A stretch of 64,000 bases of DNA. Origin: a phage. The position numbers were made by a program, and so were the translations under genes. Positions 41,089 through 64,000 of this stretch are shown in pieces. The stretch is from the sequence record PZ386974.1. One strand, written 5' to 3'. The number at the start of each line of letters is the position of its first letter. Within the stretch, counting starts at the first letter, position 1. A model generated the notes under the pieces. It did not search any database. It worked only from the letters and a program-made list of their open reading frames with translations, and was not told where the DNA came from.

Positions 41089-42189
41089 TTACGCTGTGAA
41101 GATTTTATCCCACATCGCAACAACTGCATCTCGATTATACTTCTTCCATACTGCTTCAGCACGTTTAACTCGAGCTTCGTATGTGTCAGTGAATTCTAAT
41201 ACAGCTTTTGTGTAAAGCGCAACTACTTCTTTCTTAGGAGTAGAGGAATCAATTTCTACACGCACAGTATCTGGGTCATATTCGAATGTCGCGTGCGGAT
41301 AATCCTTAAAAACTAACTGGATTACAGGGACACCTTTAGAGATGGCTTCAATAGAACTATTCTCTACCGTACCTGTGTCAGGACACGTATTAATAAGTGC
41401 TTTAGCTGTTTTAAGACGTTCCATAATTTCACTGTGTGGAGCATCAATAATAACAGGATATTTAGCCGGTGGTGCCCATTTACTAGGACAGTATCCTACA
41501 CCATTTTCGCCTAGTGCTTTAATCGCTTCAAGAGCAACATCAGTACGACGCATTTTAGTGTCATAACGTTGTGCACTAATAATCAGATCAGTCGCCGGAA
41601 GAACTTCAGGTTTCTCATTCAAACAAATAACCGGATAATCTTCGGCTTCAAACAACGGATTTGCTCGCCAATAATCATAATCAATTTTGTCAGTCAGACC
41701 CGAAGTCATATAACAATATTTACGTTCAAATTCACGGAAGGCTTTAGTAGGAGCATAACTCTTACCACCATTCTTATGAATTTGAATAGTCTGGTCCCAA
41801 ATTTGAACAATGCCACGAGATACCGGTTCAAATGGTGTTGCCATAAAATTCTTATGAACTTTAGAGAGACCTGCGTCTTTAATTGCCTGAACGGTTAGTT
41901 TGGTCGGTTCCATTGTAACAACGAAATCATACTCATTAATGCCGGCTAGTTCAACAATCTTACGAGCCATAGTATAACTCATACCTAGACTGAATTTAGT
42001 CAGATGACCAACAGGATGATGATTAACTTTCCAATCACCAAATGTGTCATTATCAAAACCGATATAATCAATATCGGCACCGATGGACACAAGATATTTC
42101 AACACATTTAAATGTACTGCTTCAAGACCACCTTGTACACGTTCTGGGTTAAATGGGACTGCGCGAGATGGGATAAACATAACTTTCAT
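41089..42189 (-). CDS. GT-B fold glycosyltransferase (GT4-like)
   Basis: 366 aa; N-terminal MKVMFIP...GGLEAV and C-terminal E-x7-E-type motif TGTVENSSIEAISKGVPVI typical of retaining GT-B enzymes; ATG start. Confidence 0.7.
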   Translation of the reverse strand: MKVMFIPSRAVPFNPERVQGGLEAVHLNVLKYLVSIGADIDYIGFDNDTFGDWKVNHHPVGHLTKFSLGMSYTMARKIVELAGINEYDFVVTMEPTKLTVQAIKDAGLSKVHKNFMATPFEPVSRGIVQIWDQTIQIHKNGGKSYAPTKAFREFERKYCYMTSGLTDKIDYDYWRANPLFEAEDYPVICLNEKPEVLPATDLIISAQRYDTKMRRTDVALEAIKALGENGVGYCPSKWAPPAKYPVIIDAPHSEIMERLKTAKALINTCPDTGTVENSSIEAISKGVPVIQLVFKDYPHATFEYDPDTVRVEIDSSTPKKEVVALYTKAVLEFTDTYEARVKRAEAVWKKYNRDAVVAMWDKIFTA

Positions 42190-53835: not shown

Positions 53836-54357
53836 TTAGTAACCATTATCCTGGCGTTCAAAGTTGTGTTGGTTTTTCAAGTAGTAAAGTTTAAAGATTT
53901 CTTCAGCAGTAAGACCAAGACCTTGGAACATATTCAGAACAAAGTGGAGGATATCAATCATTTCAAATTTAATTTCAAGCTGGTCTTCAGGAGACAGTTC
54001 ATCGATACGACGATTTCGATATTCAGCATGTTGTGCCTTCCACGGCTTCCATACACTGCTGGCGGCTTTTTCACCATTGCTCATACCACCAAGTGAAGTC
54101 AGCAGTTCACGAAATTCATCATCAATATAATCTTTCTGATTACGCAGCCAATCAACAACATCACCAGCAGTGGCCAATTCATCAGGATGTTTGTTATGTT
54201 CAGGCTTGTCATTTGCCAGACGAACCTGTAAAGATTTCTGCATATCAAGCATTACCTGCAGTGGGTCTTTATCTTCGTGAATCAGAGCATTAAAATAAGC
54301 TTCTTCTGCTTTATCAACACCAGAAATAAGTTGTGAACATTCGTTAAAGTGTGCCAT
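53836..54357 (-). CDS. 56: dCTP pyrophosphatase gp56 (MazG-like)
   Basis: Track start 54372 is TTG; ATG at 54357 with SD AAGGA gives 173 aa MAHFNECSQL...; matches T4 gp56 as recalled. Confidence 0.85.
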   Translation of the reverse strand: MAHFNECSQLISGVDKAEEAYFNALIHEDKDPLQVMLDMQKSLQVRLANDKPEHNKHPDELATAGDVVDWLRNQKDYIDDEFRELLTSLGGMSNGEKAASSVWKPWKAQHAEYRNRRIDELSPEDQLEIKFEMIDILHFVLNMFQGLGLTAEEIFKLYYLKNQHNFERQDNGY

Positions 54358-60619: not shown

Positions 60620-60961
60620 TTAAAAGAATTTAAATTTTTTCTTGGTCCGTTCATTAAAAGCTTGTTGTACTTGCATTGTAACACATTTTTCAACATGTGG
60701 TGCAAGTTCTGCTTTTCTGTCCTGATCAAGAACTGCAAAGTCCATTACGATTTTACCATCAACCCAGTCTAGTTTTGTAATATAGACTATATGATGGGAA
60801 CCGTCTTCAAGTGTAATCAGAATCTCTTGAATGACATTTTCCATTGCTGAACGGACAATTTTAAGAGATTCATTAAACACTCGTTCTTTGCGAATGTCTT
60901 CCCCTTCCGAAGAAGGGGATTCATCAACGATTTCTAGATTTAAATCATCGAGATTATTCAT
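60620..60961 (-). CDS. 40: gp40-like protein (head vertex assembly chaperone in T4)
   Basis: Track start 60982 is TTG; ATG at 60961 overlaps the uvsX 3' end; assignment rests on the uvsX-40-41 order. Confidence 0.45.
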   Translation of the reverse strand: MNNLDDLNLEIVDESPSSEGEDIRKERVFNESLKIVRSAMENVIQEILITLEDGSHHIVYITKLDWVDGKIVMDFAVLDQDRKAELAPHVEKCVTMQVQQAFNERTKKKFKFF

Positions 60962-62126
60962 CGAAATCTTCCATTTCGTCAAGGTCGTTTTCTATATCTG
61001 CTGCAGATGGAGCATCAGAAGTTTTAACCGGAACTTTAGTTGTTGCTTTGCAATTAATAAGGTCGTTAACAGCGTCATCAACTTCTTTAATAGAAGAGAT
61101 AGCACCTAGTTTATATTTAGTTTCAATTGCATCTCGGAAAGGTTTGTGTTTAAACAAAGGTCCCCAGAATTCTACACAATCAGTAGCTTTAGCACGCCAT
61201 GATTTTTCTTCACGAATCATTTCACCTGTTTCTTCGTCAAGGAATTCACGAGCATACCAACCGGCTTTAGGCTTAACTACAAAACCAATTTCAGTTGCCA
61301 TTTCTAACAAGCCACTGAATGGGTCAATACCGCCATCAAAATTAACCGTGATTGGGAAAGTAGATTTCTCTTTAACTGTACGAGATTTTTCTGCTTTCAA
61401 CGTGAAGTCATAACCGGTCAATTCTGTACCTTCTTTAACCTGACGTTTAGAGATAAAGAATACAGTGTTAGCAGAGTAAAGAATACCTGTACCACCACCC
61501 ATAATCTCTTTAGGATACAATCCGCCGATTTCCATTGCTGTATGGTTGATTGCAACACACGGAATATCTTTAATAGTCAGATAAGGAGTCACAATGCGGA
61601 ACAGAGATTTAAGTGCCTTAGCACGAGACATATCACCTACAACTTTCTCGTTCAACGCATCTTCGGTTTCTTTCTTAGATGCAGTATTACCAATCGAGTC
61701 AATAAAGATAATAACTTTATCACCGCGTTCAATAGCATCAAGCTGATTAGTCATATCAACTTTAAGTTGTTCGACAGATTGAATCGGAGTATGAACTACA
61801 CGGTCTAAATCAACACCCATTGAACGAAAATAAGATTCTGAAGCACCAAATTCCGAATCATAGAACAAACAAATTGCATCTTTATATTTCTTCATATATG
61901 CTGCAACCATGGTCAGTCCAAACAATGTTTTAAAATGTTTAGAAGGAGCAGCAAAAATAGTTAAGCCTGATTGCAACCCGGCATTCAGTGCACCACCTAA
62001 TGCAATATTCAACATCGGAATACGAGTAGGGACTTCATCACGATTATTAAACAGCTTAGACTTAGTCAAGTCTGCAGTCATTTTAGAAGTAGAAGCTTTA
62101 ATCAGACGAGATTTTAAATCAGACAT
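60954..62126 (-). CDS. uvsX: UvsX recombinase (RecA/Rad51 family)
   Basis: 390 aa; Walker A/B and collinearity with T4 UvsX as recalled; ATG start. Confidence 0.92.
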   Translation of the reverse strand: MSDLKSRLIKASTSKMTADLTKSKLFNNRDEVPTRIPMLNIALGGALNAGLQSGLTIFAAPSKHFKTLFGLTMVAAYMKKYKDAICLFYDSEFGASESYFRSMGVDLDRVVHTPIQSVEQLKVDMTNQLDAIERGDKVIIFIDSIGNTASKKETEDALNEKVVGDMSRAKALKSLFRIVTPYLTIKDIPCVAINHTAMEIGGLYPKEIMGGGTGILYSANTVFFISKRQVKEGTELTGYDFTLKAEKSRTVKEKSTFPITVNFDGGIDPFSGLLEMATEIGFVVKPKAGWYAREFLDEETGEMIREEKSWRAKATDCVEFWGPLFKHKPFRDAIETKYKLGAISSIKEVDDAVNDLINCKATTKVPVKTSDAPSAADIENDLDEMEDFDE

Positions 62127-62224
62127 TGTATTTTTCCATAGGCATCATTATATTTTACTCATGTTTAAAAGATAAGACGATTATATACTAAGGGTTATAC
62201 AGCATTTAAAACTTTAAATGGCTC

Positions 62225-62773
62225 TTAACGAGCCCATTTGATGATTTCTGTAATCAAACCATTACGTTCGCTTGCATTAAATCCTATAACTTTGTTAGCA
62301 CCATCATGATTAAGTAATTGATACGTTTGGATTTTGTTATGAATTGCAAACTCTTCAAAATGTGAAATGACTGTATTAAAACCGAATGAAGACAAAGTAA
62401 TAAGGTCGTCTTCAAAACTTTCAGTCATTTCGTTACGTGTTAAAATAATTGTGAACACATCATGGTTTTGGCAAAGACGAACATAATCCTGTTCATAAAC
62501 ATCAAGAACCGAGTCCGCATCTTGTCGAATACGTCCATAAACCCAGTTACTAATATATCCACGGTCTAACAGATAAATCTTAGTAGGGTCTAAATAATTC
62601 AACATCGTTTCGAAACAGCCAACTTCATTTCGAGACTTAACATCGAAACGTCCATCAACCGTTCGTTTAGGGAAATCAATCTTTACATATCTTTCACTAA
62701 TTTCCATTATGTCATTAATGAAAGTTGTTTTACCAGCATTATCCGGGCCATCTACTAAAATAATTTTAGCCAT
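62225..62773 (-). CDS. P-loop NTPase / nucleotide kinase-like protein (182 aa)
   Basis: Walker A at N-terminus (ILVDGPDNAGKTTF), Walker B-like YLLDRG; ATG start. Confidence 0.55.
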   Translation of the reverse strand: MAKIILVDGPDNAGKTTFINDIMEISERYVKIDFPKRTVDGRFDVKSRNEVGCFETMLNYLDPTKIYLLDRGYISNWVYGRIRQDADSVLDVYEQDYVRLCQNHDVFTIILTRNEMTESFEDDLITLSSFGFNTVISHFEEFAIHNKIQTYQLLNHDGANKVIGFNASERNGLITEIIKWAR

Positions 62774-62774
62774 T

Positions 62775-63674
62775 TTATTCCTCGATTACGACATCTTCGT
62801 ATTTAGGTATATTATACGGCGAAGAAATTAAAGCATTAAAGTAGATGAACTCACCAAGACCTGGATGGAATACTTCTTCAGGATTTTCGAAATATTGAAT
62901 CTTCGGACGTCCTTTAAGAATTTGATAGTACTCAGTTTTAGTTGGTTTAAAAATTCGAATCAGCGCTTCTTCAGGATACTTATTTCTGTCGAAGCTATTA
63001 TTTGGATCGGTTATATAAAGCGGTTGGCCTAATTGAATTGCACATTCAACCACTTGTTCAAAACGATAGCATGGGTCACTAATTCGAAATGGATGAAAAA
63101 TACCATCTAGATGAATAGGAGCCAAATCACCTACAAGACGCTGCATGATGGAAGGACGTATAACTTTCTGCGTTACGATAATCTTATTACCATCTGCACC
63201 TGCGTTAACCAGCACTTCTTTTTGACGTTCATTCAACACAGTAGTTTGAAGTGAACGATTAACAGACAACATGTCGGTTTTTAAGAATTCATCAATATAA
63301 AAACGTGGTTTATTAGGGTCTGCAGTGATATTGAAATTGAATTCTACGTCAAAAGCGCCATCATATCCAGTGATATCTGTGATTAGAAAATCACAATCAT
63401 AATAAGCAATTAATGAATCAACCACAAATTCATTTTCAGACCAGAAATATTTACGAGTGTTATACGCGTTATCTTTATACCATAATGGAACAAACTTAAA
63501 TTCTGGGAAAAGACGTTCACATTCTTTAATATCAGATGCATTACGTGGATATGTAATCACATCGCCTGGATTAGCACGGTGCAAATGAAGTTGGAAGTTG
63601 CCATCCTTAAGGATAGCATACTGTCCAGTTTCATAAGACCGCATACTCAAAATAGGTACGCGGAAAATAGCCAT
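62775..63674 (-). CDS. hypothetical protein (299 aa), possible nucleotide-sugar transferase
   Basis: ORF track; hydrophobic stretch followed by DCD (LIAYYDCDFLITD) resembling a GT-A DxD motif; weak evidence. Confidence 0.5.
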   Translation of the reverse strand: MAIFRVPILSMRSYETGQYAILKDGNFQLHLHRANPGDVITYPRNASDIKECERLFPEFKFVPLWYKDNAYNTRKYFWSENEFVVDSLIAYYDCDFLITDITGYDGAFDVEFNFNITADPNKPRFYIDEFLKTDMLSVNRSLQTTVLNERQKEVLVNAGADGNKIIVTQKVIRPSIMQRLVGDLAPIHLDGIFHPFRISDPCYRFEQVVECAIQLGQPLYITDPNNSFDRNKYPEEALIRIFKPTKTEYYQILKGRPKIQYFENPEEVFHPGLGEFIYFNALISSPYNIPKYEDVVIEE

Positions 63675-64000
63675 TAGTCAAGAAATCCTTTAACATAATC
63701 AAAATCACGTTCAAACACATGGGCACTTACCATGGTATGAGTATAATCACCAACTTCTACACCACATTCGTTAGCGATATAATGAAGTAATTTTCCTTGG
63801 AGATAAAAATCCAACTGCATAACAACAGCACAGTTCTGAGAACGCATATGACAGTGGGTATAAAGCTTACCATCGCGAATATAATAAGTCACTGAGTCAG
63901 TACATGGATATTCAAGCGTTTCGTCCGAATCAAGCAAAGCCTGATCAGAACTTTCTAGAATTTGGAACACAACTCTTCGAGAGTTAGGCTTCTCTTTAAG
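63674..64000 (-). CDS. 42: thymidylate-synthase-family enzyme, gene 42 (dCMP hydroxymethylase)-like, 5' end beyond window
   Basis: Frame open to the right edge (track start is an internal GTG); C-terminal domain with YPCTDSVTYYIRD and MRSQN resembles the catalytic-Cys region of dCMP hydroxymethylase. Confidence 0.5.
   Translation of the reverse strand, partial: LKEKPNSRRVVFQILESSDQALLDSDETLEYPCTDSVTYYIRDGKLYTHCHMRSQNCAVVMQLDFYLQGKLLHYIANECGVEVGDYTHTMVSAHVFERDFDYVKGFLD

Follow-up and report, generated by a model that had tools for sequence, protein, structure and literature searches.

Arabinosylated 5-hydroxycytosine in RB69-like phages

Arabinose in the DNA of phage RB69 was reported by Thomas et al. 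in 2018, who read the modified base as arabinosyl-hmC, proposed ORF003c as the transferase and described a block of genes not found in T4 between gene 43 and uvsX (PMC6024577). The structure was later corrected by Lee et al. (NAR 2026; PMC13326640), who established that of the RB69 nucleoside by NMR and MS as beta-D-Araf-(1-3)-alpha-D-Araf-5-hydroxy-dC, with an alpha linkage for the base-proximal arabinose. In the RB69-type pathway, all cytosines in virion DNA are replaced by mono- and di-arabinofuranosylated 5-hydroxycytosine (5hoC), and virion DNA is fully glycosylated (PMC13326640). The same chemistry was described by a second group for Mosigvirus NP (PMC13390438). In phages of the Mosigvirus type, arabinosylated 5-hydroxycytosine confers protection against restriction enzymes, DNA glycosylases and several types of CRISPR-Cas, which is relevant for phage therapy and phage engineering. 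Deletion of the arabinosyltransferase 'Aat' in Bas46 is reported to leave a viable phage.

Several steps of the pathway have been assigned to enzymes. RB69 gp48, a homologue of ThyA, was found experimentally to convert dCMP to 5-hydroxy-dCMP (5hodCMP) with flavin and O2, and N169 was identified as the signature of 5hodCMP synthases; gp159, a gp1-type kinase, converts 5hodCMP to 5hodCDP, and gp48 together with gp159 suffices to place 5hoC in E. coli DNA (PMC13326640). The pathway as listed by Lee et al. also includes the gp56 dCTPase as the source of dCMP for the hydroxylase, gp45, which was entered as a TMK-like 'nucleotide kinase', gp46:47 as the putative 'arabinosyltransferase 1', and an ORF003c-type enzyme, which was proposed as beta-arabinosyltransferase 2 (PMC13326640). 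Sugar activation was assigned to gp55, gp52:53 and gp51 and, in phage HY126, to AfhE and AfhF, of which AfhE was demonstrated to be a UDP-arabinose pyrophosphorylase (PMC13326640). As to the transfer reactions, two DLP3 transferases jointly put a third arabinose on DNA in an assay on RB69 DNA, and no arabinosylation of 5hoC-DNA was seen with any single DLP3 transferase, including gp79, the orthologue of arabinosyltransferase 1; whether the acceptor of the first sugar is the mononucleotide or DNA was left undecided by the authors (PMC13326640).

A Mosigvirus locus next to uvsX

We analyzed a 64,000-nucleotide stretch of phage DNA (PZ386974.1; hereafter, the window), in which two ORFs are located between uvsX and a gene for a ThyA homologue. 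About 150 Mosigvirus (RB69-like) genomes match a 3.1-kb region of the window with 98-98.5% identity, and judging from this sequence the window belongs to a Mosigvirus genome. The features discussed below are the following.

uvsX: 60954..62126
Kinase ORF: 62225..62773, minus strand; 182 aa, ATG start; predicted thymidylate-kinase-like P-loop nucleotide kinase, orthologue of RB69 gp45 (RB69p045)
Transferase ORF: 62775..63674, minus strand; 299 aa, ATG start; predicted GT-B (GT4-like) enzyme, orthologue of RB69 gp46:47
ThyA-homologue ORF, 3' part, about 108 codons: 63674..64000, minus strand; truncated by the window end; orthologue of RB69 gp48
ORF003c-type GT-B glycosyltransferase, 366 aa: 41092..42189, minus strand; 98.9% identity to RB69 ORF003c
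gp56 dCTPase: 53839..54357, minus strand; 97.7% identity to RB69p028

The gene order in the window is uvsX, kinase, transferase, ThyA homologue, and the last three genes are tightly packed head to tail: the ATG of the transferase overlaps the stop of the ThyA-like ORF by 1 base, and a single base lies between the stop of the transferase and the ATG of the kinase. An earlier, sequence-only reading of this DNA had placed the 182-aa and 299-aa ORFs between uvsX and the ThyA-like ORF, with coordinates that hold exactly. It had also given a single bgt gene for this place in T4; the position is indeed that of beta-gt, but the order in T4 is uvsX-segA-beta-gt-42, and segA had been missed. Neither of the two ORFs is present in T4 at the corresponding position. 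Hundreds of sequences from phages and metagenomes encode homologues of the kinase and transferase ORFs, with conservation at the protein level down to approximately 25-45% identity, and both 62225..62773 and 62775..63674 can be considered real genes. In a scan of the 61.5-64 kb region for Rfam families, repeats, promoters and terminators, nothing above chance was detected.

A comparison with the RB69-type modification genes, one of the checks suggested in the sequence-only reading, yielded near identity throughout. The 182-aa kinase matches RB69 gp45 at 180 of 182 positions, and the gene for the 299-aa protein is 99% identical at the DNA level to RB69p047 and RB69p046 taken together. The RB69 record contains one extra T, which splits the frame into ORF046c and ORF047c, whereas the 299-aa frame is intact in the window; Lee et al. 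attribute this extra T to a sequencing error that divides one gene (PMC13326640). The two RB69 half-ORFs in BFVD superpose on the N-terminal and C-terminal parts of our model of the 299-aa protein with TM-scores of 0.97-0.98. In phage NRG-P0074 (98.4% identical), the genes that follow the ThyA homologue include those for a U32-like 'peptidase' and a gp51-like 'phosphoheptose isomerase', and RB69 has a complete UDP-arabinofuranose gene set (arabinose-5-P isomerase, bifunctional kinase/uridylyltransferase and HAD phosphatase). In the phage analyzed here, the corresponding genes would be located past position 64000, outside the window. The locus thus is a known system that has already been described, in which the orthologues of both ORFs, gp45 and gp46:47, have predicted roles. 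Database records often label the genes of this locus 'hypothetical protein', 'thymidylate kinase' or 'thymidylate synthase/dCMP hydroxymethylase', and the gain for the window itself is correct gene annotation.

The identity of the modified base hinges on the ThyA homologue, which the sequence-only reading had taken for the dCMP hydroxymethylase encoded by gene 42. The partial ORF matches the Pfam family Thymidylat_synt (E 7.7e-11), and over the 104 residues that the window contains it is 100% identical to residues 135-238 of RB69 gp48. When aligned with E. coli ThyA, T4 gp42 and RB69 gp48, it has E143, C146, N169 and D177 (E. coli ThyA numbering), that is, the complete signature of 5hodCMP synthases (L143E, D169N, N177D and the catalytic C146); T4 gp42, in contrast, has D at position 169. 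This neighbour is a flavin-dependent dCMP 5-hydroxylase (5-hydroxy-dCMP synthase), not a hydroxymethylase, and because it combines the N169 signature with identity to RB69 gp48, the base that is decorated would be 5-hydroxycytosine rather than hmC. The rest of the pathway that falls within the window is present as well, namely, the dCTPase and the ORF003c-type second transferase. The gene for the latter is flanked by rIIA and gp39, and its 366-aa product is nearly identical to the glycosyltransferase of phage HY126 with solved structures (9iqz/9ir0; E 7e-249).

Predicted kinase and glycosyltransferase

The 182-aa protein contains the Walker A motif GPDNAGKT (residues 9-16) and the hhhhD(R) motif IYLLDRG, which is invariant in its homologues, so that its designation as a P-loop kinase-like protein in the sequence-only reading was borne out. 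The G, K, D and R residues of the P-loop and DR motifs (GPDNAGKT, LDRGY) are invariant across 21 homologues, and the combination of the family P-loop, EG/DGxDxxGKT, with the DR motif is of the thymidylate kinase type. Similarity to the curated thymidylate kinase families is below the accepted thresholds: the window kinase itself does not match PF02223, 12 of the 21 homologues match this family weakly (best E 2e-4, under the 27-bit cut-off), and the TIGR00041 score of 15.8 bits falls short of the cut-off of 83. Sequence searches of PDB, Pfam and NCBIfam with the kinase and the transferase returned just P-loop-level or chance matches. Taken together, the motifs identify the protein as a probable thymidylate-kinase-like nucleotide kinase and not a sugar-activation enzyme. 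The suggestion that this kinase acts in nucleotide-sugar activation is accordingly not upheld, other genes of the cluster being those assigned to sugar activation.

For the 299-aa protein, an AlphaFold model built on a 55-sequence alignment reached a pLDDT of 95.4; a model from the single sequence (pLDDT 36.8) was discarded. The model consists of two Rossmann-like domains with a cleft between them, and all its strong structural matches (Foldseek, BFVD) are GT-B proteins, the nearest neighbours being sucrose-phosphate synthase, MshA and trehalose-6-P synthase. By E-value, the top Foldseek matches in PDB are UDP-GlcNAc 2-epimerases, which share the fold and have lower TM-scores. At the sequence level, we detected no match to Pfam at E<=1 and none to NCBIfam, and a search of PDB with the family profile found no glycosyltransferase at E<=10. 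The comparison with T4 bgt that the sequence-only reading had called for produced no similarity either (hhalign probability 0.4%; nothing below E 5 in blastp and tblastn). We conclude from the model that the protein is probably a GT-B, GT4-like glycosyltransferase that is free of a metal-binding motif; a glycosyltransferase fold, rather than one of a non-transferase family, is also what the sequence-only reading had expected. A GT4-like (retaining) fold would be compatible with a base-proximal sugar in alpha linkage, as reported.

The most conserved positions of the transferase family (given in protein numbering, which is the alignment numbering plus 1) are SMRS 10-13, KDGN 23-26, TDITGY 99-104, FPFRxSD 193-200, TDPN 222-225, K246 and HPG 270-272. 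GT4 enzymes bind the nucleotide-sugar in the C-terminal domain. In the C-terminal domain of the 299-aa protein, R197 of FPFRxSD, K246 and H270-P271-G272 are invariant and E/D275 is conserved, forming an HPGxx(E/D) motif at 270-275; by secondary-structure position, these residues lie where the donor-binding residues of GT4 enzymes, a diphosphate-binding Arg/Lys and the acidic residue of the EX7E region, would be expected.

The sequence-only reading had instead pointed to a GT-A-like DCD motif. The string itself is present, as YYDCDF (D93-C94-D95), but it is neither conserved nor unexpected: among 55 homologues, D93 is found in 14, C94 in 13 and D95 in 36, and the single DxD observed compares with an expectation of 1.26 when the protein sequence is shuffled (P(>=1) = 0.75). 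The nearby TDITG(Y), on the other hand, is almost invariant. A GT-A transferase with a metal-binding DxD was rejected in view of the poor conservation of DCD, its chance expectation and the GT-B fold. The transferase family is acidic, with a median pI of 5.1, compared with 9.05 for T4 beta-GT; the difference speaks weakly against DNA as the acceptor, and we judge it too weak as evidence for distinguishing DNA from a nucleotide.

Scanning IMG/VR with the transferase alignment, we collected 58 viral loci that contain a transferase relative, nearly all of them with the order hydroxylase, transferase, kinase. The ThyA homologue is located directly upstream of the transferase in nearly all of these loci, and 51 of the 53 locus-encoded ThyA homologues have E143/N169/D177; two of the 53 are located farther from the transferase. 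The TMK-like kinase is encoded either directly downstream of the transferase or shifted a few kb upstream (within 3 kb); it is retained in every T4-like locus of the set and, in the form of an EGxDRxGK[TD] kinase, is still adjacent to transferase relatives with about 25% identity. We infer that hydroxylase, transferase and kinase travel as one cassette. The sugar genes, in contrast, differ from locus to locus, with arabinose genes in some and UDP-galactopyranose mutase in locus L054, while the trio persists. Since the sugar genes vary and the trio is constant, the transferase and the kinase would have their place on the base side of the pathway rather than on its sugar side, and the makeup of these loci argues that different members of the transferase family transfer different furanoses.

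Proposed roles and comparison with known systems

The preferred explanation, which we hold to be probable although with a considerable margin of doubt, assigns both ORFs to the RB69-type arabinosyl-5-hydroxycytosine pathway, with predicted roles as the first transferase and a nucleoside monophosphate kinase. In the proposed scheme, gp56 and gp48 would make 5hodCMP, and the TMK-like kinase, dedicated to C5-substituted dCMP, would convert 5-hydroxy-dCMP to the diphosphate alongside the gp1-type dNMP kinase. The diphosphate would feed the triphosphate pool, and the base would then be polymerised. With UDP-arabinofuranose provided by other genes of the cluster, the small, presumably metal-independent 299-aa GT-B enzyme would use UDP-Araf to attach the first, alpha-linked D-Araf to the 5-hydroxyl group of 5-hydroxycytosine. 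The acceptor would most likely be a base already incorporated into DNA, as is the case in all known phage DNA glycosylations, and the ORF003c-type enzyme would add the second arabinose. Several observations count against this proposal. Conversion of 5hodCMP to 5hodCDP is already performed by gp159, so that the proposed kinase step would be redundant in T4-like phages; the single DLP3 transferases failed on 5hoC-DNA (PMC13326640); the transferase lacks a sequence-level match to curated GT families; and a UDP-xylose pyrophosphorylase activity has been reported for its Thanatos orthologue, TH1_063 (Brandt et al.).

Some of these observations would be accommodated by a different, pre-replicative order of events, in which the 299-aa enzyme arabinosylates 5-hydroxy-dCMP, the TMK-like kinase serves arabinosyl-5-hydroxy-dCMP, the sugar-bearing triphosphate is polymerised and only the second sugar is added on DNA. 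We consider this unlikely. Consistent with it are the nearly universal, translationally packed hydroxylase-transferase-kinase trio, the retention of the kinase in all T4-like loci even though the gp1-type kinase handles 5hodCMP, the inactivity of the orthologue of arabinosyltransferase 1 on 5hoC-DNA, which goes with the option left open by Lee et al. (PMC13326640), the small phosphorylated acceptors used by the nearest structural neighbours (sucrose-phosphate synthase, MshA and trehalose-6-P synthase), and the acidic transferase protein. If true, transfer to the nucleotide would explain both the failure of single transferases on 5hoC-DNA and the retention of a second nucleotide kinase, and phage DNA hypermodification would have its first case of glycosylation at the nucleotide level. 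Yet gp48 and gp159 alone yield 5hoC in E. coli DNA, and virion DNA is fully glycosylated (PMC13326640); because these two enzymes suffice, bare 5hodCTP would compete, leaving unglycosylated 5hoC unless a first transferase acting on DNA exists. Moreover, the phage DNA glycosylations that have been characterised all take place after replication, as established for T-even phages, and the negative in vitro results may merely reflect inactive protein.

Even less probable, in our assessment, is a role of the 299-aa protein as a sugar-nucleotide enzyme, either a UDP-pentose pyrophosphorylase or a GT-B enzyme resembling UDP-sugar epimerases. The case for it comes from TH1_063, a 300-aa gene next to the Thanatos ThyA homologue with a product 47.5% identical to the window protein, which, when purified, formed UDP-xylose from UTP and xylose-1-phosphate (Brandt et al.), and from the UDP-GlcNAc 2-epimerases that lead the Foldseek PDB matches by E-value. 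The GT-B fold, however, is not that of nucleotidyltransferases, and there is no match to the NTP_transferase family in Pfam; the cluster already has a 561-aa protein combining NTP_transferase and kinase (PF00483, 6e-11), a homologue of HY126 AfhE; the gene follows the hydroxylase and not the variable sugar genes; and the Thanatos cluster, from a phage with mono-arabinosylated DNA, would be left with no other GT candidate. We give hardly any credence to the reading from which the analysis started, that of an hmC hypermodification module, possibly of the T2/T6 type, in which a GT-A DxD transferase and a sugar-activation kinase lie next to a dCMP hydroxymethylase. It drew on the position, which is the same as that of T4 beta-gt, and would fit the arabinosyl-hmC once reported for RB69 (PMC6024577), an assignment that was later corrected (PMC13326640, PMC13390438) and, for RB69, is refuted by the nucleoside structure determined with NMR and MS. 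It is also at odds with the N169 signature of the neighbour and its identity to an enzyme proven to make 5hodCMP, with the GT-B fold, the poorly conserved DCD, the dissimilarity to T4 beta-gt and the TMK-like kinase. What stands of this reading is cytosine hypermodification with a non-T4 sugar encoded at the beta-gt position, but the base would be 5hoC.

With the first transferase and nucleotide kinase of the RB69-type pathway as the preferred assignment, the locus can be compared with several known systems. T4 beta-gt, along with the T2/T6 beta-alpha-glucosyltransferase, shares with the 299-aa transferase the chromosomal position, the general function predicted for the latter (UDP-sugar-dependent decoration of a C5-oxygenated cytosine) and membership in the GT-B superfamily. 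Compared with the GT4-family GT-B enzymes (sucrose-phosphate synthase, 6kih; BshA, 6n1x; MshA, 3c4q; PimA, 2gej) and T4 alpha-glucosyltransferase (1y6f), the transferase shows 7-12% identity, and it is approximately 60-100 residues shorter than typical GT4-family members. The kinase differs from thymidylate kinases (PF02223) and the small phage kinase YorR (2axp/3kb2) in its sub-cut-off similarity and shorter length (182 aa), and also in its genomic association, which is with the dCMP hydroxylase and a glycosyltransferase and not with thymidylate synthesis. Homologous gene sets are the Afh genes of phage HY126 and gp78/gp79/gp80 of DLP3. The closest counterpart is the gp45/gp46:47/gp48 cluster of RB69, which has the same genes in the same order with the same neighbours (uvsX and the ThyA homologue) and whose companion genes, for the ORF003c-type second transferase and the dCTPase, are both encoded in the window as well; the differences between the two are only at the strain level.

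The U32-like gene of the clusters

Besides the kinase and the transferase, a Peptidase_U32-like gene (PF01136, E-values between 1e-6 and 2e-12) is a constant member of the clusters in the following loci:

L002:6493-7662, minus strand, RB69 gp50, PF01136; its counterpart position lies just past the end of the window
L063:6462-7598, U32-like gene of the Thanatos-2 locus, PF01136
L051:5954-7048, U32-like gene, PF01136
L053:5783-6862, U32-like gene, PF01136
L057:5885-6970, U32-like gene, PF01136
L055:8076-9176, U32-like gene, PF01136

In three of these loci (L051, L053 and L057), the gene order is kinase, transferase, U32-like gene, and no ThyA homologue was found within 5 kb. Proteins of the U32 family, namely, RlhA, TrhP and UbiU/V, have roles in O2-independent hydroxylation, including the formation of 5-hydroxycytidine in rRNA. 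Therefore, the phage U32-like protein could provide an anaerobic route to 5-hydroxycytosine, complementing the O2-dependent dCMP 5-hydroxylase gp48. Lee 2026 (PMC13326640) lists this protein merely as a “sugar or heterocycle reductase”, and our literature search found no paper connecting U32, 5-hydroxycytosine and phage.

Other elements of the window

Two further features of the window are as follows:

62127-62224, minus strand, intergenic region upstream of uvsX
41092-42189, minus strand, gene for an ORF003c-type GT-B glycosyltransferase, between rIIA and gene 39

In the intergenic region, at ~62207-62180 on the minus strand, AAATGCTGTA is followed, after 12 nt, by TATAAT, an arrangement similar to the consensus of T4 middle (MotA-dependent) promoters and a candidate promoter for uvsX. 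A generic sigma-70 scan covering this region yielded hits at chance level.

The ORF003c-type protein shares 98.9% identity with RB69 ORF003c and is nearly identical to the solved glycosyltransferase of phage HY126 (PDB 9iqz/9ir0); it is a putative second arabinosyltransferase of the same pathway as the kinase-transferase pair, encoded 20 kb from that pair.

Annotation and assay of the transferase family

Annotation of the trio (transferase, kinase and hydroxylase) is inconsistent among ~150 near-identical public genomes: the transferase is mostly a “hypothetical protein”, with “glycosyltransferase” in one record, and the hydroxylase is labelled “thymidylate synthase” in some records and “dCMP hydroxymethylase” in others. 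In the RB69 RefSeq record NC_004928 (p046/p047, L002:4598-5498), an extra T relative to window 62775-63674 (alignment column 545) makes the 299-aa reading frame appear as two separate “hypothetical proteins”; in the window, the frame is intact. The Thanatos-2 member of the family is as follows:

L063:4995-5897, TH2_066, transferase-family gene

A note within the Thanatos-2 record describes TH2_066 as a “putative RNA polymerase binding protein”. The sole direct enzyme assay of this family that we found in the literature reports UDP-xylose pyrophosphorylase activity for the Thanatos protein TH1_063 (PMC12838424), which is at odds with the GT-B fold of the family.

A variant locus

In locus L054 (3615-6198), the transferase-family protein is a remote one (26% identity). 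The gene upstream of it encodes a ThyA homologue in which position 169 is S rather than the hydroxylase signature N, and the gene downstream encodes a UDP-galactopyranose mutase (PF03275, 6e-34); no kinase turned up within 2.5 kb. This locus may represent a galactofuranose variant, resembling Rhizobium phage RL38J1.
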